Source: a virus
Reading direction: 5' to 3' (one strand)
DNA: 53,461 nt
Virus genome (UHGV): UHGV-0032033
Under the pieces are notes generated by a model. It worked only from the letters and a program-made list of their open reading frames with translations, did no database searches and was not told the origin of the DNA. This document shows positions 3,901-25,541 of the stretch, in pieces (position 1 is the stretch's first letter; each line of letters begins with the position of its first letter). The translations under genes and the position numbers were made by a program.

Positions 3901-5398
3901 CTCCAGCATCAAAGGGGAAATCGCCCGCGTTGACAAAGCAATCGCAACCGAAACGCAGGCAAGAAGCGACGCAATAACAGAGGTTAAAGCTGATTTAACC
4001 ACGCTTGAAAATAGCACGAACGCCAGTGTTAGACGCCTTGATCAAGCTATCGCTGACGAATCAAGCGCGCGCGCCCAGGCAATATCAGGCATCAGTGCGG
4101 AGCTTGGTTCTGTTGAAAGTGATGTTGATAAAAACAGCGACAAGATAGAACAGGCGAAAGCAAGCCTGCAAAACGCATCGATTGCACTTATCAACAACTC
4201 AATAGCGCAAAGCAAGATGGGCACTGTTATTGAGGCGAAATATAGGAAAAGCCAGATAAAAACAAAAGCGGAAATAGCAAGGATCGACACAGCAATAGCA
4301 GACGAAACCCAGGCACGCGCAGAGGCTATAGCTTCTCTTGAAGCCAATATTAATGAAAACATTTCAGCAAAAATAACAGATATATCAACGGCGCTCGCAA
4401 CTCACGAGGCATCAAGTGCTGAAAAATTTGTTCAAATATCGGCATCTTTCGACGATGTAAACTCAAGCATCACGGAATGGTCACAGGCCATGACAACGGC
4501 AGACGAGGCATTATCAACCAAAATTGATCAGCTGAAAGTGACCGTTAACGGAAACACAACAGCGATCGAGACAACATCGAAAGCGTTAACTGACTTTAAA
4601 GGTAACGTTGATGCGTCATATTCAATCAAGCTCGCCACCGATAACAACGGCATGACATACGCTACAGGTATGTCGCTTGGATTGACTGGAGACGGGACTA
4701 ACTTTCAATCGCAGTGTATTTTTCTGGTTGATCGCTTCGTTTTAATGACTGCGGCAAACGGTACATATCAATCGCCTTTCTATGTCACCAATGGCGCAAT
4801 GTATGTGCGCGAAGCGTTTATTAAAAACGGTTCAATCGACAATGCAAAAATAGGCAATGTCATAACATCCTACAACTGGAACGGTAGCGATCAAGGGTGG
4901 GCAATAGTTAAAGATGGCTGGGCTACATTTAACAACGTTACAGTTCGAGGCACGGTATACGCCACTAACGGCGAGTTTTCAGGGGCCGTTAGAGCCAAAT
5001 CATTTGAGGGTGGCATTAGTTCAGGTACGCAGGGAACAAGGCAATCCAGCGGGACGATCACAATTAACGTAACACCTAATACATCTAATAGTATGCTATT
5101 GCTTTTCGTTTCTGTGTACACGGCTGGTGTGCGCACAGCAAGCGGCGAACATACAGTAACACTACATGCTGGTGGTCGTAGTTTTAACGTTCCTCCGTCT
5201 TATGTTGCAAGTGGTGGCGTACCGTCAACTTACAGATTTGATTCAACTATAATCATCCCGGTAATTGGGACAAATAAGAGGGCTGTTTCGATATATTTGA
5301 GTCATGTTGGACATGTTAGCTTAATTAACACAGACATAAGACTTCTTGGCGCTGTATTACTAAACTCTTCATTTTTAACAGGTACTTTTGATTTTTAA
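992..5398 (+). CDS. tail tip host-specificity protein J-like (central tail fibre), 1468 aa
   Basis: RBS aacaggag; N-terminal ~800 aa carry lambda J hallmarks (ISEGPIYGPV, YHLRG, AFGCTSRGQAHRAGKWLI); then coiled-coil with internal duplication and C-terminal receptor-binding-like region. Confidence 0.9.
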   Translation: MSSGGGKAKTPTLINDNLYHKQFYRVLDIISEGPIYGPVNTKAPLNSVMLNDTPVTDANGNTSIPGISVAWRNGTIDQSPINGFNAIESTVIVNAQVKHDTPIIRTVSDPNVNRVRLNIGVDSLVQSDEQSNQHNTSVMMMIDVKPSSSSTWTLVKDVTIGPGKISGEYLEAHIINAPDEKPFDIRVRRVTADSTSDLLQNDTRWSSYSEIIDDNLSYPHTAVAGAVIDHDQYADTPTRTYHLRGLIVDIPDNYDPEKRTYSGLWLGGFKQAYTNNPAWIFRYLVKNERFGLARHAGYIDVDDGALYTLSRYCDQLVDDGYGGLEPRMTLNAYITEQMSARDLLDNIAGMFRGIALWDGQRLTVMIDAPQDPIATITNANVVDGAFTRSSISRAECYNAVIVSWTDPENGWEQSKEYVADDELIARDGYNETTLEAFGCTSRGQAHRAGKWLIETAKREPSKFTFKMARDAIHFTPGDIIEILDNNRAGARLGGRIVANNGKVITVDKVDSEYIAAGDTISLLDGDGKFKKHQITGVNWNKITLAAAPAWIRNGTVFAVSTESAKPVLCRIISVAETENNSVYTIEAAQHDPNKQAVVDEGAIFEINNDTLNHFRVPNIENLKVVNIGSETVQCRATWETQTTTHRMTFEIRIYNADGAVVKSYETTKYSYDFYGIDAGAYSLGVRGRNDTGMKGAESIVDLVIGAPASPIGVNWVPGVFQATVYPISKTTLTTDTAYEFYYAGENQITDPAKITTSAQFTGRGYQWTFGGMNTGHTYYVYVRTRNAFGVSDFVEASGKPTENFDEISDYVTKDVMNSEQFKGMVSDIKDLGDRTDIIESATADLKTATDGLKADTDTLKKDTEDLYKKVEENADEIGKHAVRIDSLEVSDENVNNELAQTKASLQNASLALINNSLAQTNTRVTLTAQYKKGRNETKAQIDRIDNVIADEKKATAESLETITAEMNAMDSSIKGEIARVDKAIATETQARSDAITEVKADLTTLENSTNASVRRLDQAIADESSARAQAISGISAELGSVESDVDKNSDKIEQAKASLQNASIALINNSIAQSKMGTVIEAKYRKSQIKTKAEIARIDTAIADETQARAEAIASLEANINENISAKITDISTALATHEASSAEKFVQISASFDDVNSSITEWSQAMTTADEALSTKIDQLKVTVNGNTTAIETTSKALTDFKGNVDASYSIKLATDNNGMTYATGMSLGLTGDGTNFQSQCIFLVDRFVLMTAANGTYQSPFYVTNGAMYVREAFIKNGSIDNAKIGNVITSYNWNGSDQGWAIVKDGWATFNNVTVRGTVYATNGEFSGAVRAKSFEGGISSGTQGTRQSSGTITINVTPNTSNSMLLLFVSVYTAGVRTASGEHTVTLHAGGRSFNVPPSYVASGGVPSTYRFDSTIIIPVIGTNKRAVSIYLSHVGHVSLINTDIRLLGAVLLNSSFLTGTFDF

Positions 5399-5506: not shown

Positions 5507-7270
5507 ATGATTTACACAACAGGCACGATAGCCGTTAGCGGAAAAACAGTTACCGGGACAGGGACTGAATTCAACGCCGCATTATCTCTGATCAGGGTTG
5601 GTTGCACTCTTATTGCCATTAGCGATCCGGTGCAGATTTTTTCAATTACAGAGGTAAAAAGCGCAACAAGTTTATCAGTAACCCCCTCGGCAAGTCCTGC
5701 TATTCCTGCTGGCACTAAATTTAGCATCCTGCTTTCAGACTCGATCTCTGTAGATGGTCTTGCTCAGGATGTCGCCGAAACACTGCGTTACTATCAGGGC
5801 AAAGAATCAGAAATAGCTGACGCCGTTGAATTTTTTAGCGACAACAAAGATGTGATTTCAGCCTCAAAATTAGCATCAACATCGGCCACCACTGCAACAA
5901 ACGCGGCAAAAACAGCAACAAGCGCCGCAGATTCAGCTAAGACATACAGAGATGAGGCCCACGAATACGCCAATCAGACCGCGCAGCCTTACGCGTATGT
6001 TTTGCAGCCGCTGCCGGACGTATGGATACCGTTCAACGATTCTCTCGATATGATCACGGGCTACGGCCCTGGCACTAAAAAAGTAACCATTGACGGGGAA
6101 GAAAAAACAATATCATCAGATAAGGTTGTTTCTTTCTCACGCGCAAGTACAGCTACTTACATTAACAAATCAGGTGTTTTAACTGTGGCTGGTATTAATG
6201 AGCCACGTTTTGAACGTGAGGGTTTGCTTATTGAGGGGCAGAGAACTAATTATCTGTTAAACTCAAATAATCCGCAGTCGTGGCCTATACACTCATCACT
6301 AAATAAAGAGTTTGGTAGCGACAACTTTAACTTCAACTACGCAACAGTATCGCCGACTAATGATATTATAGGGACAACAGGAGGCTACGCTATAATCAAT
6401 GTTGCCACCAGAGATAGGTTTAATCTACTTAGCGGTGAAAGTTTTACTTTTTCTTGTCGTGCCAAAGGTAGCAAGTGCAGACTCCGTGCGAGAGTGGCTT
6501 ATGCTGGGGATGGTGGTGCTGACGTTTTTTCATCAGACGCATATCTAGACTTTGATTCAGTAACGGCTTCAGTAAGCGGTCAAGTCAATCTTATTAAAGC
6601 AAAACTCGAGCGGCGCGGAGAATGGCTTTATTTTGAAGTAACATACACGGCAGACGCTGATCGCAACGGCATAAACTGCGCTTTCTTTTTTGCTAACAAG
6701 ATTAGCGAAGAGCCATTTTATGAAGATTCAACGATTACGCTAGCTACACCACAAATTGAGCTTGGATCATGCGCATCATCGTTTATTATTTCTAATGGTA
6801 CGCCAACAACAAGAGCAAGTGATGTCGTAACAGTTACATCACAAAACAACCTTGCCGTTAGACCGTTTACTATTCTTTGCGAGGTTAGCAAAAGCTGGAA
6901 CACGCCGCCAAATGTAGCACCACGTATATTTGATGTTGGTGGTCACATAATTGATGATAATTATTTGTCACTTGGATTTGTTTCAACAGGAAAACTTTCT
7001 GCAAATGTTGGAATGATTCAACCGCAAATTGCCGTTGATGGTAATAGGTTTATTGCTGGCTTGAGAGCTAAATCAGATTTATCAGTTAATGCTATATTAA
7101 ATGGAAACTATACGACTAATACTAACGGGAAAGTATTTGGCATTACTGCAAATTTATACCGTTTTGGTGGTCAAACTTCGTCTGGTACTCGTCACCTGTT
7201 TGGTCACATTAGAAATTTTAGGGTTTGGTTTAAGGAGCTAACAGATTCGCAAATAAGCGAAGTGGTTTAA
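5507..7270 (+). CDS. side tail fibre protein
   Basis: 587-aa ORF with RBS ggag after J; Ala/Ser/Thr-rich N-terminal shaft-like region (ASTSATTATNAAKTATSAADSAKTYRDEA); position typical of lambdoid tail fibre. Confidence 0.7.
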   Translation: MIYTTGTIAVSGKTVTGTGTEFNAALSLIRVGCTLIAISDPVQIFSITEVKSATSLSVTPSASPAIPAGTKFSILLSDSISVDGLAQDVAETLRYYQGKESEIADAVEFFSDNKDVISASKLASTSATTATNAAKTATSAADSAKTYRDEAHEYANQTAQPYAYVLQPLPDVWIPFNDSLDMITGYGPGTKKVTIDGEEKTISSDKVVSFSRASTATYINKSGVLTVAGINEPRFEREGLLIEGQRTNYLLNSNNPQSWPIHSSLNKEFGSDNFNFNYATVSPTNDIIGTTGGYAIINVATRDRFNLLSGESFTFSCRAKGSKCRLRARVAYAGDGGADVFSSDAYLDFDSVTASVSGQVNLIKAKLERRGEWLYFEVTYTADADRNGINCAFFFANKISEEPFYEDSTITLATPQIELGSCASSFIISNGTPTTRASDVVTVTSQNNLAVRPFTILCEVSKSWNTPPNVAPRIFDVGGHIIDDNYLSLGFVSTGKLSANVGMIQPQIAVDGNRFIAGLRAKSDLSVNAILNGNYTTNTNGKVFGITANLYRFGGQTSSGTRHLFGHIRNFRVWFKELTDSQISEVV

Positions 7271-9107: not shown

Positions 9108-9280
9108 TAACGATATACAGGGCGCGACGTAGTTGATAATTCGTGAAGCGGTTCAGGAAATGGTGTACCTGCCGCTTCCCATTTCATTTTCCATACTCTG
9201 AAAGTTGTCCTACTTATTCCGCCGAGCATTTCCCTGATCCGTGCCGTAGTCAATAATAATGTCGCGGTTTTATCCATCAC
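9047..9280 (-). CDS. excisionase / AlpA-like HTH DNA-binding protein
   Basis: 77-aa ORF convergent with and overlapping int 3' end; HTH-like LLTTARIREMLGGISRTTFRVW segment. Confidence 0.5.
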   Translation of the reverse strand: MMDKTATLLLTTARIREMLGGISRTTFRVWKMKWEAAGTPFPEPLHELSTTSRPVYRYQDVMQFFKSVGLLSDTDKT

Positions 9281-9933
9281 TTATCCCCAGTATATTTAGT
9301 TAGCGGGATATCCCCATTAATAATAGATTTTGCCATATCGCGATAATCACGCGAATAATCATTATCAACTCTGAAATTAATCTCAATTGCCGCATCAAAT
9401 CCAATAACCTTAACCGCCAATGCAAACGCGATTTCAGCTACCGCCTTTTCTTTCGGATCAATATACAATTTATGGGCAAAATGCCGCCATTCCCCGGCTT
9501 GTTCAAAATCAGACGTATCCTTTTCTACAAAAAGAGCAAGACGATCGCTTATATATTTGTATTTCAAAACAGGATATCCCGTTACCCGACCATTAACAGG
9601 ATCGAGAAGTTCAAGCCACACGCCGCACGGCGGCTTTTCTCCAGGTTTCCATTCCGTAACTTCCGGCGCATCGCAATCATGCCGCTCATCTTCGATTAAT
9701 TCATCAATAATCTCGCTTTCTTTATTCATGCCGTCATCATCCGTTTCAGAGTAACGCACAAAGCGCCACGTATTAGCCATCACCGTATAAGATTCACCGC
9801 CTACCTTAGATCCGGCGTAATACTCCGTCCCGAAATCGTAATAACTTAAAAACGTGGTTACTTCAAAAGACGGGATGTCATCACGGAAGCGGTGAACTAT
9901 TTTACCTATTGCAAAATGGGTTTTCTTCGTCAT
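9277..9933 (-). CDS. hypothetical protein (218 aa)
   Basis: ORF at distal end of leftward early operon, start coupled to upstream small ORF; no motif recognised. Confidence 0.5.
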   Translation of the reverse strand: MTKKTHFAIGKIVHRFRDDIPSFEVTTFLSYYDFGTEYYAGSKVGGESYTVMANTWRFVRYSETDDDGMNKESEIIDELIEDERHDCDAPEVTEWKPGEKPPCGVWLELLDPVNGRVTGYPVLKYKYISDRLALFVEKDTSDFEQAGEWRHFAHKLYIDPKEKAVAEIAFALAVKVIGFDAAIEINFRVDNDYSRDYRDMAKSIINGDIPLTKYTGDK

Positions 9934-10745: not shown

Positions 10746-10952
10746 TTACACAATACGCATTATGTTTCTTGATTCACCGCGCAGCGCCTGCAACGCTTCG
10801 CGAACTGGAACAAAAGCTCTGTTAAATTTTACGTGTCTGTACTTGCGCATCAGTGGAGGTGTATAAACCATCGCGCCGCAAGAATTGCATGGGAAACGGA
10901 AATGTGATTCATCAATGAATGTTTCAACTGAATAAAATATTACCCGTCTCAT
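10746..10952 (-). CDS. hypothetical protein (68 aa)
   Basis: Small ORF in leftward early operon, overlapping start of downstream gene. Confidence 0.4.
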   Translation of the reverse strand: MRRVIFYSVETFIDESHFRFPCNSCGAMVYTPPLMRKYRHVKFNRAFVPVREALQALRGESRNIMRIV

Positions 10953-11542
10953 AATTCTAACCCCGTTTCGCTGTTAAGTTTTTCGATTTCAAATACTGGT
11001 TTATCCGGCAGCAGGCCGTTATTTTTCCGGTATTCGTTCAGGCGGCTATCAAAATCAAATGCAAGATCATTAGCGTGACCGAATCGCCCGGGCTTAAACA
11101 GTGAGTAAAAATTAAGGCCGTGTTTATTGGTGTCTATGCAAAGCGTTTCATCCAGTACCATTAAACGCAGCGTGCGCGACAGGTAATTCCACGGAATACC
11201 AGTTTCCGCGCTAATGTCACGCATACGCTTTTTAACGCTGTAGTCACTAAATAACGCCGCCACACGATCGCGCCGTTGCGCATACAAATATTTAATTCGA
11301 TACCCCAACAAGCGGCGGCGCGGTCCAAAATATGTATACACACGCTCAACAATACCAGTATCGATCAGGTGTTTAATTGTCTCAGACAAACATCCTGCTT
11401 CGTCATATTCCGCTGATAATCCTGTTTTCTGGCGTAGCTGGTGCATCGTTGCGATGCCGTCAATTTCAAGGATATTGATAACCTTTGTTTCAAGTTCAAT
11501 GCTCATTGTTTTTCGCCTCGTTTTAAGCACGAAAACAGCCAC
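10949..11542 (-). CDS. hypothetical protein, winged-helix-like N-terminus (start may be internal Met MSIELET)
   Basis: 197-aa ORF directly downstream of DnaB gene; N-terminal segment VINILEIDGIATMHQLRQKTGLS resembles wHTH. Confidence 0.45.
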   Translation of the reverse strand: MAVFVLKTRRKTMSIELETKVINILEIDGIATMHQLRQKTGLSAEYDEAGCLSETIKHLIDTGIVERVYTYFGPRRRLLGYRIKYLYAQRRDRVAALFSDYSVKKRMRDISAETGIPWNYLSRTLRLMVLDETLCIDTNKHGLNFYSLFKPGRFGHANDLAFDFDSRLNEYRKNNGLLPDKPVFEIEKLNSETGLEL

Positions 11543-13025: not shown

Positions 13026-14144
13026 TTACAAAATGGAATATTCAGGGTAATAAACAAAGCGCCCGATCTCCCCATAATCAGGACTGTAAATTATTACCGC
13101 AGCCAGACGCCGCGACCGCCAGCCGCCATTCGTTGAATAAGCGTCTTTGCCCGCTAACGTGCCGTGATGTTCTACGATCCCTAACGATGTTTCTACAACA
13201 GACTGGTGATGAAGATGGCCCGTATGAGCGTAAACCGCCGCCGACTTGCCGAAATCCTCCCGCCAGTCAGAGATGCAGGCAGCTAACAAATTTTCGGGTT
13301 TTTTGATAGTGTGACCGTGATGATAGGCAAGGAATGTTTTGCCGTACTGTGTGTGGTGGACGATAGCAGGGGACACGTCAACCGTCACGCGCGGTTCATC
13401 TTCGTAAAAAGCAGCCAGCGCCGCACGTAGCCAAATCATCCCTGATTGATCATGATTTCCGCTAAGCACCTGGATCTCGACATCCTTATGATTTAGCAAC
13501 ATCTTCCCGACAGCACGCCGGACCGACCGGATCGCCACGTAAACAAGTTTTGCGTAGCGTGAATCACAATCCAAAACGTGATTACTTGATGGCGTCACTG
13601 GTAACAGTCCGTCAGTGTGGAGCACATCCCCGCCTAACAGCAAAACAGCTTTTTCAGACATCGGTGCAGCGCCTACCGCGTAGTCGAAGAAATCATTTAG
13701 CACGCGCTCAGCGATCCCAGTGTCGTAGCTCTCGCCGCATTCTGCCTTGTGAGCAAGCGCCCCGATATGCAGATCAAATACCGGATAAAGGGCCAGGCTT
13801 TTTTGGAAATCAATTTCCGGCACTGGCACGGCCTCCGCGCGGGGTATTTCTTCCGTGAATGCATCACAAGCCGATTGCATTAGCCTTTCCATTTCATCGC
13901 GATCACGGGCTGTTTTAATCCAGCGCATAATCACATTGCCATCCTTATCGACGAGCAATGACTCACCATTGACGCCAAAACCCGGCGCGCGACGCGTGGA
14001 TATTAAACCGCGTTTCGCCAACCGTGCGCCCAGGCGTTCGACGTTGCGTTTTGCCATGCCATATTTTTCTGCTATTTGCTTGTAAGTTTTCCCCTTGTTG
14101 TACTCAGCGATCAGTTCCTCATCGCTGATCTTTCTTTGTGACAT
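13026..14144 (-). CDS. HTH domain fused to calcineurin-like metallophosphoesterase
   Basis: N-terminal HTH (TYKQIAEKYGMAKRNVERLGARLAKRGLI); C-terminal phosphoesterase motifs DLHIG, GGDVLHTD, LSGNHD, HTGHLHH; occupies helicase-loader position between initiator and DnaB. Confidence 0.6.
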   Translation of the reverse strand: MSQRKISDEELIAEYNKGKTYKQIAEKYGMAKRNVERLGARLAKRGLISTRRAPGFGVNGESLLVDKDGNVIMRWIKTARDRDEMERLMQSACDAFTEEIPRAEAVPVPEIDFQKSLALYPVFDLHIGALAHKAECGESYDTGIAERVLNDFFDYAVGAAPMSEKAVLLLGGDVLHTDGLLPVTPSSNHVLDCDSRYAKLVYVAIRSVRRAVGKMLLNHKDVEIQVLSGNHDQSGMIWLRAALAAFYEDEPRVTVDVSPAIVHHTQYGKTFLAYHHGHTIKKPENLLAACISDWREDFGKSAAVYAHTGHLHHQSVVETSLGIVEHHGTLAGKDAYSTNGGWRSRRLAAVIIYSPDYGEIGRFVYYPEYSIL

Positions 14145-18831: not shown

Positions 18832-19093
18832 TGCGCCGCAGATTCCGCGAACAAAAGAGCAAGTTCTAAAAGAAGCCCGTGATCAAATCGATCGCGGGCT
18901 TTTTTTATGCGGCACGGCAGCGGATCGGATGGCAAAAAGATTTAGTGACCTGTACGCAAAGCAAATATGGTTCGACAACTGGCAGGCAAGTTTTTACCCA
19001 CTGCAAAGAAAACCGGATATGCATTGGCCTGAATATGTCGATCCACGTATGCGCAAATATCGCGGGCGTATGGGCCAGGTTATTAACGATTAA
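18800..19093 (+). CDS. hypothetical protein (97 aa)
   Basis: Internal ATG of track ORF 18659..19093 preceded by gtttacaatatgg; overlaps ssb 3' end. Confidence 0.45.
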   Translation: MAKAESTHYLDAPQIPRTKEQVLKEARDQIDRGLFLCGTAADRMAKRFSDLYAKQIWFDNWQASFYPLQRKPDMHWPEYVDPRMRKYRGRMGQVIND

Positions 19094-19106
19094 TGAGGTG
19101 TTAATC

Positions 19107-19358
19107 ATGACAGCTACAACATTAAGCGAAAATAACGGTAGAGGTTTTCAGAGAACTGCGGAAAGCCTTGATGATAGTGATGTATTTGTTGATTTCGGCG
19201 GCGGAAACTACGAATTCGAGACGTCTGCGGGCTGGGTTGATAAATGGCCTTTCCCTACTCGACAGGAATTAAGCGAACGTAAATCATTTGGCGAAGATGC
19301 CGAACGCCTGGCGAATAATAAATGGTTGGATAAATTTATTGCGGAGGCTGATAAATGA
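19107..19358 (+). CDS. hypothetical protein (83 aa)
   Basis: RBS gaggtg; internal Met of track ORF 18879..19358. Confidence 0.5.
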   Translation: MTATTLSENNGRGFQRTAESLDDSDVFVDFGGGNYEFETSAGWVDKWPFPTRQELSERKSFGEDAERLANNKWLDKFIAEADK

Positions 19359-22295: not shown

Positions 22296-22835
22296 ATGAA
22301 AAATGATTACGGCGGCAGCCATACGCCGAAAGAAATAAAAGACTTATGGCAAACGCCAAAACCAGTTTTTAGAGGAATGGATCGGGAATTCGAATTCGTC
22401 GCGGATGTGGCGGCAAACAAGGCAAACGCATTAATCCCGCGATATATAACCGAAGAAATGGACACGCTTCATTATCCGTGGGGTGCGGTGGCGATGCCTG
22501 GTGAGTATGTCTGGATGAATCCGCCATATTCTAATCCGGGGCCATTCGTTGATAAGGCGGCGCTTGAACATCAACGAAATCACATTGGCTGTGTAATGCT
22601 ATTGCCCGCTGACATTTCTGTTAGCTGGTTTATGAACGGCGTGGAGACGGCAAACGAATGCCGATTAATCACGCGCGGGCGGCTGGCGTTTATCAATGCT
22701 GCAACAGGGAAACCAGTAAGCGGGAACAATAAGGGGAGCTTGTTCTTGATCTGGCATCCACGATGCAGACATGAATGTATTTTCACGCAGATAACACGTA
22801 AAGAGCTATATGCAAGAGGTGCAGAAAATGAGTAA
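22296..22835 (+). CDS. dam: DNA N6-adenine methyltransferase (phage Dam-type)
   Basis: 179 aa; catalytic NPPY motif (YVWMNPPYSNPGPFVDKA), size and context typical of phage Dam. Confidence 0.8.
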   Translation: MKNDYGGSHTPKEIKDLWQTPKPVFRGMDREFEFVADVAANKANALIPRYITEEMDTLHYPWGAVAMPGEYVWMNPPYSNPGPFVDKAALEHQRNHIGCVMLLPADISVSWFMNGVETANECRLITRGRLAFINAATGKPVSGNNKGSLFLIWHPRCRHECIFTQITRKELYARGAENE

Positions 22836-23340
22836 AGCGGCTAAATTGCTGAGACTTGCGGCTGAAACTATCGAGGCAAGAGGGGAACAAAACGGATACG
22901 ATCGAAAAGAAGAAAAATCAGCGCCAAAAATAGCGGCTATTTTCAACGCTAAGATGAATGCAAATTTGACCCCGCTTGATGTATGGGATCTAATGATTTG
23001 CCTCAAGGAAGCGCGTTTAGGGGCTATTCTCGCTAATGGAACTGATCCGCTCGACACTCTTATAGACCTTATTGCTTATAACGCGCTTAAGGCCGAACAA
23101 ATATTAACGGAGCGGGAGGAAGAGCAAAAGAAAAAACAGGGCGTTTTTGATCTCCCTATCGGTGGATTGAAGAAAACTTTTGCTGACCTTGCCGGACCAG
23201 AACCATCTATTGTACCGGGGACAATCCCACCTGTGATGTTTAACGGTGGTGAGATTACTAATCGGCTTGATGTGAAGTTTGACAACGAATCGCTATTACG
23301 CGCGGCGGGGTATCATAAAAATGGAAAGGGTGACAATTGA
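22828..23340 (+). CDS. hypothetical protein (170 aa)
   Basis: RBS; ORF between the two methyltransferase-like genes. Confidence 0.5.
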   Translation: MSKAAKLLRLAAETIEARGEQNGYDRKEEKSAPKIAAIFNAKMNANLTPLDVWDLMICLKEARLGAILANGTDPLDTLIDLIAYNALKAEQILTEREEEQKKKQGVFDLPIGGLKKTFADLAGPEPSIVPGTIPPVMFNGGEITNRLDVKFDNESLLRAAGYHKNGKGDN

Positions 23341-23824
23341 CAGGTTATTAGCCTGCGTTTATGTCGCCGTTTTTGTGATCATCAATCTTATTGTTAATCA
23401 TTGCGGCCCGTGGATAATTCCGATCACCACGGTAGCCGCCGTGTGTGTCAATATGATGATCCGTGACCTCCTGTTATATGACGGCGGCCTGAAATGGTCG
23501 GCTACAACATGCGCCGCCGCTGGCGCAATCACGGTGCTGATAAATTACGACGCCGGAATGGTGGCGATCGCGTCATTCGTTGCGGTTGTTTCCGGTGCAC
23601 TTATTTCTGGCGGCGTTTACCGGGTTTTGCCTGGTGGCTTTGATTCTAAACGTTGGCCTGCAAATATAGCGTCCGCCATTGGTGATGCGTTAATTTTTCC
23701 TACGCTATCGTTTATGGCGTTTATGCCGGAAATATCAGCTATGCAATTCATCTCAAAAATGGCAGCGGTAACGGTGATTACTATCATCATGCGACGCTAT
23801 TTCACGTTTGAGGGTAGAAAATGA
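23321..23824 (+). CDS. multi-pass membrane protein, possibly VUT/YhhQ-like transporter (tentative)
   Basis: ~4 predicted TM helices; recalled resemblance to YhhQ segments (MIRDLLLYDG, IASAIGDALIFPTLSF); start uncertain. Confidence 0.35.
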   Translation: MERVTIDRLLACVYVAVFVIINLIVNHCGPWIIPITTVAAVCVNMMIRDLLLYDGGLKWSATTCAAAGAITVLINYDAGMVAIASFVAVVSGALISGGVYRVLPGGFDSKRWPANIASAIGDALIFPTLSFMAFMPEISAMQFISKMAAVTVITIIMRRYFTFEGRK

Positions 23825-24585
23825 GCGGGCTTAGAAATTGGGTTATCTGGTCGCTGTATGACGGCAGCGGGTACGCCGTTAAAGATTGGGCGGACGCTGG
23901 TTATAAATGTTATTGCTTCAACTATGACGGCGCTAATCACGGGGATTATGACGGGGTAAAAATAATTCATCCAAATATTGAATATGTCAATGTCTGGATT
24001 GACAGCCATTTCCTGGTAATGTTCTCCCCTGAATTGTCTGTTTATCCAGATCCTGACATTATCCTGGCCTTTCCGCCATGCGACCATCTCGCCGTGTCAG
24101 GCGCTCGTTGGTTTGCCAGCAAGCGTGAAAAAGATCCTGATTTTCAGGTGAAAGCGGCATACAACGCAAAACTGGTAGAAACGCTGGCTGATATGTATCA
24201 CGTCCCGTGGATGGTGGAAAATCCGGTAGGCGCACTGTCAACGTTATGGCGTAAACCGGATTTCATCTTCAATCCGTGCGCTTACGGTGGCTACCTGCCG
24301 GAAGATGATGAACATCCCGCTTTCCCGGAATACATAGCCGCCCGCGACGCTTACACGAAGAAAACATGTATCTGGTGCGGGAATGGATTTAAGCAGCCGC
24401 TATTCCGGCCTGTACCGATGCCGGATGAATGGGAAAACAGCAAACAGTACGCGAAATTGGGCGGGAAGTCGAAACGCACTAAGATGATCCGCTCACTAAC
24501 GCCGCGCGGCTTTGCCCGTGCTGTATTCATGGCTAACGACCGGGCCATCACTCGTACTACGCTTAACCGCGTTTTACCGGACTAA
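23821..24585 (+). CDS. compact DNA cytosine-C5 methyltransferase-like protein (254 aa)
   Basis: Motif I-like IWSLYDGSGYA, PC motif ILAFPPCDHLAVSGARW, ENV-like WMVENPVGAL, C-terminal TPRGFARAVFMAND; much shorter than canonical C5-MTases. Confidence 0.5.
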   Translation: MSGLRNWVIWSLYDGSGYAVKDWADAGYKCYCFNYDGANHGDYDGVKIIHPNIEYVNVWIDSHFLVMFSPELSVYPDPDIILAFPPCDHLAVSGARWFASKREKDPDFQVKAAYNAKLVETLADMYHVPWMVENPVGALSTLWRKPDFIFNPCAYGGYLPEDDEHPAFPEYIAARDAYTKKTCIWCGNGFKQPLFRPVPMPDEWENSKQYAKLGGKSKRTKMIRSLTPRGFARAVFMANDRAITRTTLNRVLPD

Positions 24586-24744
24586 AGTTTACAAAATGGC
24601 GTCATTGCGTGATGCGGATCACATAATGGCGCTTTTTGCCTTGTTTGGGGGTATCCATTTTGTATACTTCAAGCAAACAAAATGCTCTTTAAAAATCCGG
24701 CAGCGCTGAAATGCGTAGAAATCACCTGAAAAGGAGAGAGCATT

Positions 24745-24921
24745 ATGTCTTTTGATGATTACCAATGGCATGACGACTATGAACGAGAAAGCGTCATGCG
24801 TGCAATGTGCAATGTATGCAGCACGAAGAAAGGAGGCTGTAACGAGTGCAACGAATGCTTAGATCATTGGCTAAGGGCCGGACACGCCGAAAGGCTGAAC
24901 GAAACAGAGAATCAAAAATAA
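24745..24921 (+). CDS. small Cys-rich (zinc-ribbon-like) protein (58 aa)
   Basis: RBS aaaggagag; MSFDDYQWHDDYERESVMRAMCNVCSTKKGGCNECNECLDHW...; below track cut-off. Confidence 0.4.
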   Translation: MSFDDYQWHDDYERESVMRAMCNVCSTKKGGCNECNECLDHWLRAGHAERLNETENQK

Positions 24922-24935
24922 TCGGGGTGGTTTTT

Positions 24936-25541
24936 ATGCAAAACCCTAAAAAACCCATAAGACGCCGTTGCAAATGCTGCGGCGTTTTTTTTGAGCCTAA
25001 ATATCACAATCAAACGTGGTGCAGCGATGAATGTCTGGAAGAACTGAAGTTTGATCAGCTATGTCGCGACCGTGAGAAGGCTATGAAGGCTATGGAGCGG
25101 AAGAAACGCCGTGATAGCCAGCGTGAAGAACGCAACCGGAAGCGTAAACAGTTAAATCCGCGTAGTTATTGGTTAAAGCAGGCGCAAGCGGTATTTAATG
25201 CATATATCCGCGAACGCGACGCGGGTCAGCCGTGTATATCTTGCGGGACTTATTACGGCGATCAGTGTTCCTGGGATGCCGGGCACTATAGAACGGTTGC
25301 TGCCGCAGGGCACCTTCGTTTTAACGAAGATAACTGCCATCGCCAATGCAGGCACTGCAACCAGACATTAGACGGCAACATAGCAGCTTATCGCCCTGCA
25401 CTGATTAGAAAAATTGGCCTCGCCAGGGTGGAAGCGCTGGAGAACAACAACGATACGCATAAATGGACGATCGAAGAATGTAAAGAGATTATAAAAATCT
25501 ATCAGGCGAAATTGGACGCCTTAAGGAGAAAGGCAGCATGA
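24936..25541 (+). CDS. ninG: NinG/Rap-like recombination protein
   Basis: 201 aa from internal Met; Cys-rich clusters (RRCKCCGVFFEPKYHNQTWCSDEC; CISCGTYYGDQC; CHRQCRHCN); precedes rusA as in lambda nin region. Confidence 0.7.
   Translation: MQNPKKPIRRRCKCCGVFFEPKYHNQTWCSDECLEELKFDQLCRDREKAMKAMERKKRRDSQREERNRKRKQLNPRSYWLKQAQAVFNAYIRERDAGQPCISCGTYYGDQCSWDAGHYRTVAAAGHLRFNEDNCHRQCRHCNQTLDGNIAAYRPALIRKIGLARVEALENNNDTHKWTIEECKEIIKIYQAKLDALRRKAA

Follow-up and report, generated by a model that had tools for sequence, protein, structure and literature searches.

The virus genome UHGV-0032033, a stretch of 53,461 nucleotides that was analysed whole and is here called the window, raises the question of whether the 254-amino acid (aa) product of the open reading frame (ORF) at 23821-24585 (+) is a DNA cytosine-C5 methyltransferase (C5-MTase) and, if so, whether it is an unusual one. 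An earlier note, made by reading the letters of the DNA, had proposed an unusually compact C5-MTase-like protein, encoded near Dam and a putative transporter, and had suggested that the cluster could be a DNA-modification module with non-canonical chemistry or specificity. Our analysis indicates that the gene very probably encodes an active, S-adenosylmethionine (SAM)-dependent DNA C5-MTase belonging to a compact phage family that is often labelled "Dcm-like". The family is very common among phages, widely annotated and in part characterised; the protein is an ordinary member of it, and not a new kind of DNA-modification enzyme.

The 254-aa protein was the exact product of ORF 23821-24585 (+) in the translation of the window. 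The four strings quoted in the earlier note were all present at the translation level, with IWSLYDGSGYA at residues 9-19, ILAFPPCDHLAVSGARW at 81-97 (including Cys87), WMVENPVGAL at 130-139 and TPRGFARAVFMAND at 227-240. A Shine-Dalgarno-like GAGGGT, read directly from the sequence, stands 5′ of the ATG (23810..23815, +). A word-indexed protein search detected 2587 homologues, and an exhaustive profile search with the methyltransferase family detected 2162 representatives of 50%-identity clusters at E<=1e-3. These numbers are far beyond chance, and ORF 23821-24585 is therefore clearly a real gene. The surrounding DNA (22296-25541 of the window) was 85-90% identical to the Escherichia phages MagusPhagus, mEp554, mEp010, mEp013, mEp044, mEp515 and mEp021. 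On these similarities we classify the window as an mEp021-like (mEpimmI) temperate coliphage and the gene as an orthologue of mEp021_33. The mEpimmI group consists of Nus-dependent, non-lambdoid temperate phages, and the probable functions listed for it include a DNA cytosine methyltransferase (PMC11893012).

The protein matched PHROG 757, labelled "DNA methyltransferase", at E=2.2e-87, with residues 5-247 aligned to profile positions 13-226 of 247. Using tblastn, the family was found in 1518 of 50,697 phage records (~3%), from hosts including Escherichia, Klebsiella, Salmonella, Shigella and others. In these carriers it is usually annotated as DNA methyltransferase, C-5 cytosine methylase or "Dcm-like C5 cytosine methyltransferase". 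The median length of 269 collected family proteins, fragments and fusions included, was 232 aa, and the window protein fits the family architecture, which is a single domain of ~210-260 aa that ends just after an RSxTPRGFA motif. The protein is compact, as the earlier note had said, but this is the norm in the family and not unusual.

The predicted structure agreed with this classification. An AlphaFold2 model built from 25 sequences had a predicted local distance difference test score (pLDDT) of 83.2 and a predicted template modelling score (pTM) of 0.84, and showed the expected order of elements, beta1-alphaA-beta2...beta7. The top 50 Foldseek matches in the PDB were all catalytic domains of the DNMT3 family (DNMT3A/3B/3C; E about 2e-6), and HhaI and the prophage enzyme 3g7u were also among the structural matches. 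The window protein is thus modelled with the catalytic-domain fold of the C5-MTases. Together with the recognition of PF00145 in relatives and the invariant Cys and Glu described below, this fold similarity bears out the C5-MTase-like character that had been proposed for it.

Profile comparisons gave matching results for the N-terminal half. Residues 6-140 aligned by hhalign to HhaI 11-126 at E=0.0016, a span in which motifs I, IV, V and VI correspond, when the canonical side was a profile of 68 sequences comprising HhaI and 67 viral C5-MTases recovered by locus scan. The viral set was used in place of an HhaI-seeded homologue search, whose yield was confined to sequences with over 70% identity to HhaI. 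Comparison of the family with the single HhaI sequence, or with a narrow HhaI-group profile, gave too weak a match (E=0.06), in which the C-terminus was not reliably aligned. Two relatives that are 57-61% identical to the window protein exceeded the PF00145 gathering score of 22 bits (P0079, 28.5 bits; P0012, 24.7 bits), with matches spanning only profile positions 4-94 of 324, which hold motifs I-IV. PF00145 was matched at E<=1 by 10 of 25 close relatives. When family profiles were compared with the PDB, M.HaeIII and DNMT3B stood at or near the top of the lists and their motif I and Pro-Cys lined up, but the E-values were not significant.

A member of the family has been studied in vivo. Work on the retron Ec86 used phage K42 (KarlJaspers strain, 95.4% identical), and in K42 mutants that evade the retron a dcm gene of 711 bp was found to be disrupted (bioRxiv 10.1101/2023.08.16.553469; listed as Cell Rep 2024 43:114857 in PMC12916289). 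Expression of K42 Dcm raised 5-methylcytosine (5mC) on the Ec86 multicopy single-stranded DNA (msDNA), as measured by liquid chromatography coupled to mass spectrometry (LC-MS), and activated the retron, and a C82A/E128A/K175A/K176A mutant caused neither the rise in 5mC nor the activation (bioRxiv 10.1101/2023.08.16.553469). The mutated residues were picked by superposing an AlphaFold model on DNMT3A, with K175 and K176 as predicted substrate-binding residues (bioRxiv 10.1101/2023.08.16.553469). In KarlJaspers (MZ501090) the gene is bas06_0055, a 711-bp "Dcm-like" gene whose 236-aa product was 61% identical to window residues 8-239 (E=8e-102). K42 residues C82, E128, K175 and K176 aligned with C87, E133, K180 and K181 of the window protein. 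By analogy with this homologue, the window protein would also form 5mC. The view that it is smaller than any characterised C5-MTase no longer holds, given this 236-aa relative. P0079, which shares the residues C82/E128/K175/K176, had been considered as a candidate for K42 Dcm, but proved to be of a Salmonella-phage type; the KarlJaspers gene was found via the BASEL supplement.

Other members point in the same direction. ORF52 of Pantoea phage AAS23 belongs to the family and was confirmed to be the family gene of one of our loci (L034). Its authors reported a match to 3ME5, the structure of a Shigella C5-MTase, at an HHpred probability of 99.7%, and restriction digests in which the virion DNA behaved like Dcm-methylated DNA. 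The compact domain also occurs in natural fusions, with a D12-class N6-adenine methyltransferase in P0250 (563 aa) and with an HNH endonuclease domain in P0252 (348 aa), and both fusions fit a DNA-modification role for the family.

Residue conservation was counted in 66 diverse family members, and the residues following the catalytic Cys in 246 members. Cys87, Glu133, Pro152, Tyr178, Trp185 and Pro193 were invariant. The motif I-like SAM-binding loop (residues 10-17, WSLYDGSG; 23848..23871, +) was matched to motif I in M.HaeIII, DNMT3A/B and HhaI by hmmsearch and hhalign, and the family consensus at this site is SLFDxTG. Motif IV (residues 84-94, FPPCDHLAVSG; 24070..24102, +) carries the putative nucleophile Cys87 (66/66), the counterpart of C82 in K42 Dcm. 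Motif VI (residues 133-136, ENPV; 24217..24228, +) aligned to the ENV of HhaI and was highly conserved (E133 in 66/66, N134 in 62/66 and P135 in 65/66), Glu133 being the counterpart of E128 in K42 Dcm.

The earlier note had suggested that a change from PCQ to PCD in motif IV may alter catalysis. PCTD, however, is the family consensus, and is also carried by a relative 81% identical to the window protein (P0003), while DNMT3A/B have PCND and not PCQ. Of the 246 members, 187 had TD after the catalytic Cys, and only 2 had the DH of the window protein. PCD is a rare local variant, and these alignments give no cause to expect that it changes the chemistry.

Following motif VI, a conserved insertion (residues 151-177, PxxYGGYLP...HPxFP) lies between beta6 and beta7. 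The motif VIII-like strand (residues 176-190, DAYTKKTCIWCGNGF; 24346..24390, +) reads D-A-Y-T-K-K-T-C-I-W, with Lys180 and Lys181 where canonical enzymes carry R-x-R. K180 and T182 were each found in 65/66 members, and position 181 was K or R in 43/66. Its equivalence to motif VIII is suggested by its resemblance to RARYFWGN of DNMT3A and by the superposition made by the K42 authors. Between this strand and the motif IX-like element there is a short variable segment of ~33 aa (residues 191-223; 24391..24489, +), the only candidate target-recognition region and considerably shorter than the 80 aa or so that had been supposed to remain for this purpose. It was variable and indel-rich in the family alignment and was modelled with less confidence than any other internal part (pLDDT 61-72). 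We infer that it takes part in target recognition.

The C-terminus had been described as resembling motifs IX-X, and of these it aligned, weakly, with the first only. The motif IX-like element (residues 224-236, RSLTPRGFARAVF; 24490..24528, +) resembles R-x-L-T-P-R-E-x-A-R and reads RSLTPRGFAR in the window protein. When the final 50 columns of the family alignment were set by hhalign against that part of the 68-sequence canonical profile which covers the 143 C-terminal positions of HhaI, the sole local match was to HhaI 269-277, which is motif IX; the match was weak (E=0.016 for a single comparison). Nothing in this region aligned with motif X. Pfam scans of C-terminal fragments, run on the question of motif IX versus motif X, returned no match. 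The tail following N239 had a median of 4-5 aa in the family, with 1-10 residues in most members, and 15 aa with low pLDDT in the window protein.

Several observations weigh against the identification of the protein as an active C5-MTase. In direct Pfam and NCBIfam scans it had no PF00145 or NCBIfam match at E<=0.1, and neither phmmer nor two family profiles gave a significant sequence match to PDB chains (E about 0.3-1). The arginines of the Q-x-R-x-R motif are not present in the motif VIII-like strand, and hhalign detected no sequence counterpart of motif X, the GN[AS]V helix at HhaI 297-313 by which the SAM pocket is closed. The window clade has Asn34 where 62/66 relatives have Asp, and Asp88 where 61/66 have Thr. 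In the K42 study a dcm+ host was used, and CCWGG, as the site of K42 Dcm, was not mapped but supposed from the host enzyme (bioRxiv 10.1101/2023.08.16.553469). Finally, two relatives on mEp021-like IMG/VR contigs (L060 and L061, about 4001-4408) keep only the 3′ part of the gene, from approximately codon 150, and the 5′ part with motifs I-VI has no counterpart there. As these loci have lost 150 codons from the 5′ end, the methyltransferase gene is dispensable.

One reading is that the family has a minimal C5-MTase architecture, consisting of motifs I-VIII and a IX-like helix, with Lys for the motif VIII arginines, ~33 aa for recognition and no motif X counterpart found by sequence, and that it has relaxed or unusual specificity or a new way of closing the SAM pocket. 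The specificity may involve short motifs, hemimethylation or hairpin DNA, for example, and the pocket may be closed by dimerising. We consider this unlikely. If it were true, it would matter for sensing by retron Eco1, and the enzyme could be used as a 5mC writer of very small size.

A reading to which we give little credence is that in the window clade the methyltransferase-like protein has little or no catalytic activity and only binds DNA or SAM, or that its gene is a decaying accessory gene. The clade-specific residues N34 and D88 at conserved positions would suit such a protein, as would the lack of a motif X counterpart, the truncated genes of L060 and L061 and the lack of a direct Pfam match. 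However, Cys87, Glu133, K180, T182 and W185 were all intact, as was the RSLTPRGF motif. In 18 related loci the gene has been kept at full length, with 79-98% identity, which indicates purifying selection. Position 88 evidently tolerates change, since the 81%-identical relative has PCTD and others have PCDH. The missing motif X is common to the active K42/KarlJaspers enzyme, as are the lysines in motif VIII and the short recognition segment, and these are traits of the family and not peculiarities of this gene. An active C5-MTase thus remains the explanation that we favour.

The neighbouring genes had suggested a module. Two genes upstream, as the earlier note had stated, there is a phage Dam, an N6-adenine methyltransferase (22296..22835, +; PF05869, E=7e-52; TIGR01712, 141.6 bits, cut-off 97). 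It is followed by a DUF6378 protein (22810-23340, +; PF19905, E=1e-8). The PHROG matches of the latter (474 and 1167) are labelled "phosphofructokinase", which is an implausible name, and among relatives it was far more variable (57-98% identity) than its neighbours. Directly upstream of the methyltransferase lies the gene of a 167-aa protein (23321..23824, +; best start 23321, alternative start 23279) that matches PHROG 4899, a family of unknown function. It is a multi-helix membrane protein, with six helices predicted in an AlphaFold2 model of mediocre confidence (pLDDT 67.6). A fold search of BFVD with this mediocre model gave no match at E<=1e-3. A search of 5.8 billion sequences yielded only 12 homologues, nearly all of them from mEp021-like phages or prophages.

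The weak YhhQ/VUT-like features ascribed to the membrane protein were a fair description. Its similarity to Vut_1 (PF02592) was collinear over positions 6-149 of 152, almost the full length, but at 12.0 bits (E=0.27) it stayed below the gathering score of 27.2. PF02592 was matched by six of seven homologues (best E=5e-4), and hhalign with E. coli YhhQ gave E=0.1. The protein is possibly a remote relative of the VUT/YhhQ family, a relationship that these sequence similarities do not establish.

Co-occurrence argued against a conserved methyltransferase/transporter module. The window-type Dam, the DUF6378 protein and the membrane protein accompanied the methyltransferase in 20 of 81 family loci, all of them mEp021-like, and were absent from all of the other carriers (about 59). 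The cluster is the synteny of one phage clade and gives no support to a conserved modification module. In one locus (L007) most of Dam, the DUF6378 gene and half of the membrane protein gene have been lost and the methyltransferase is retained. The four genes are individually dispensable. The ATG of the methyltransferase overlaps the stop codon of the membrane protein gene as ATGA, and an identical 4-bp overlap is annotated in mEp021, but this shows only that the two are co-expressed within the mEp021-like clade.

Very improbable, in light of the above, is a transfer other than that of a methyl group, for example of carboxymethyl from carboxy-S-adenosylmethionine (Cx-SAM), which E. coli makes, or an unusual-modification module formed with the VUT-like protein and the DUF6378 protein. 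The link to VUT was below threshold, and the supposed partners were restricted to a single clade. The suggestion of non-canonical chemistry also conflicts with the reported rise in 5mC caused by K42 Dcm, given that the window protein shares 61% identity with the KarlJaspers counterpart of that enzyme. Cx-SAM chemistry, which had been raised by the carboxymethyltransferase CmoX (see below), was set aside in view of the LC-MS detection of 5mC for the homologue and the lack of an assignable motif X. No 7-deazaguanine gene (DpdA/TGT-type or QueC/D/E) was found among ten large early or unassigned ORFs of the window or in the genes flanking the methyltransferase, and the ten ORFs yielded no other base-modification enzyme. 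Those ORFs with a Pfam match encoded an integrase, a DnaB-type helicase, a helix-turn-helix protein, a CI-like repressor and ERF. Several sizeable ORFs, at 5507-7270 (+), 13026-14144 (-), 9277-9933 (-), 10949-11542 (-) and 18879-19358 (+), which encode 587, 372, 218, 197 and 159 aa respectively, had no Pfam match at E<=1e-3. We would give an equally slight chance to a physiological substrate of single-stranded or hairpin DNA or of RNA (compare DNMT2), with methylation of the genome as an incidental effect, because the virion DNA of AAS23 is reported to be Dcm-type methylated, P0250 is naturally fused to a DNA adenine methyltransferase, and the best structural matches are DNA enzymes (DNMT3A/B, HhaI and prophage 3g7u).

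If the protein is an active C5-MTase, as we think, the mechanism of the superfamily would apply. Cys87 in motif IV would attack C6 of a flipped-out cytosine and Glu133 in motif VI would protonate and hold N3/N4, with Lys180 and Lys181 standing in for the arginines of motif VIII. SAM would be bound by motif I (YDGSG), by Asn34, an Asp in most relatives, and by the motif III region, and its methyl group would be transferred to C5, forming 5mC. The target would be read through residues 191-223 or thereabouts, possibly together with the conserved insertion at 151-177, and the recognition sequence is possibly CCWGG-like.

The likely role of the enzyme would be to place 5mC on phage DNA, and incidentally on host DNA, and thereby to allow escape from restriction. 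The cost would be that retron Ec86/Eco1 can sense such enzymes. In the window CCWGG and GATC were not avoided (observed/expected 0.96 and 1.02, respectively), which is compatible with protection by methylation and is not evidence for it. Many GC-rich 6-bp palindromes were absent from the window although several copies of each would be expected, among them GGCGCC (22.1 expected), CCGCGG (18.9), GCCGGC (10.7) and CTGCAG (9.1). AGGCCT was found once against 13.8 expected, and the observed/expected ratio of GGCC was 0.70 over the whole window. The absence of these palindromes looks like avoidance of restriction sites that the methylases of the phage would not cover.

Expression is probably from a delayed-early rightward operon with the order Dam, DUF6378, membrane protein, methyltransferase, a terminator and nutR2, ninF, ninG, rusA and Q, in which the methyltransferase would be translationally coupled to the membrane protein gene. 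The genes found 3′ of the methyltransferase were those of NinF, NinG, RusA and the antiterminator Q. In the interval that follows the methyltransferase stop codon (24586-24744), a GC-rich hairpin precedes a T-run (together at about 24598-24640). Further on there is a boxA-like element, TGCTCTTTAAAAA, at 24683-24695, which is nearly identical to the rrn/lambda boxA consensus and is followed by a small GAAA-type hairpin. In mEp021, nutR2 is positioned just 3′ of the methyltransferase gene (PMC11893012). As read from the DNA, the hairpin with its T-run and the boxA-like element fit the terminator t4 and the nutR2 site placed there in mEp021 by PMC11893012.

An orthologue is already annotated in mEp021, the reference phage of the group, and the gene carries little weight as a discovery. 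By analogy with K42, mEp021-like temperate phages probably methylate DNA to 5mC and may thus trigger retron Eco1. Of modest interest are the specificity of the family and its apparently missing motif X, as they bear on how small a working C5-MTase can be.

Among known systems, the canonical PF00145 enzymes M.HhaI, M.HaeIII and E. coli Dcm are about 75-220 aa longer than the window protein. They have R-x-R in motif VIII and GN[AS]V in motif X, whereas the window protein has Lys-Lys-Thr and no motif X counterpart was found in it. In the window protein the target-recognition domain is cut to ~33 aa, and the protein falls below PF00145 detection. The catalytic domains of DNMT3A and DNMT3B, which belong to eukaryotic multidomain enzymes, were 13-16% identical to the window protein. 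They retain motif IX as well as motif X, and carry R-x-R in motif VIII, and we found no evidence for a specific evolutionary link between DNMT3 and the window protein. CmoX, the C5-carboxymethyltransferase of Synechococcus phage S-B43 (PDB 8yf3), owes its selectivity to Arg350 at the position of the motif X Asn (HhaI Asn304) and is encoded beside CmoA. In the window protein no motif X counterpart was found to which this position could be assigned, no CmoA-like gene was seen in the methyltransferase neighbourhood or the scanned ORFs, and its homologue is reported to make 5mC.

The Dcm of KarlJaspers/K42 resembles the window protein in length class, motif set, the four residues that were mutated and in having DNMT3A as the closest solved fold. 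It comes from a virulent, T1-like phage of the Drexlerviridae, whereas the window is a temperate mEp021-like phage, and it has PCTD in motif IV where the window protein has PCDH. The window protein also differs from it in the low-confidence C-terminal tail of 15 aa and in its gene neighbourhood. The closest known counterparts are mEp021_33 ("putative DNA cytosine methyltransferase") and the MagusPhagus protein annotated as "DNA methyltransferase", which are true orthologues with 83-93% aa identity. The window, mEp021 and MagusPhagus share the gene order Dam, hypothetical protein, membrane protein, methyltransferase, ninF, ninG, rusA and Q, and in mEp021 the gene upstream of the methyltransferase is annotated as "putative membrane protein, 6 transmembrane domains". 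From these two orthologues the window gene differs only by divergence at the sequence level.

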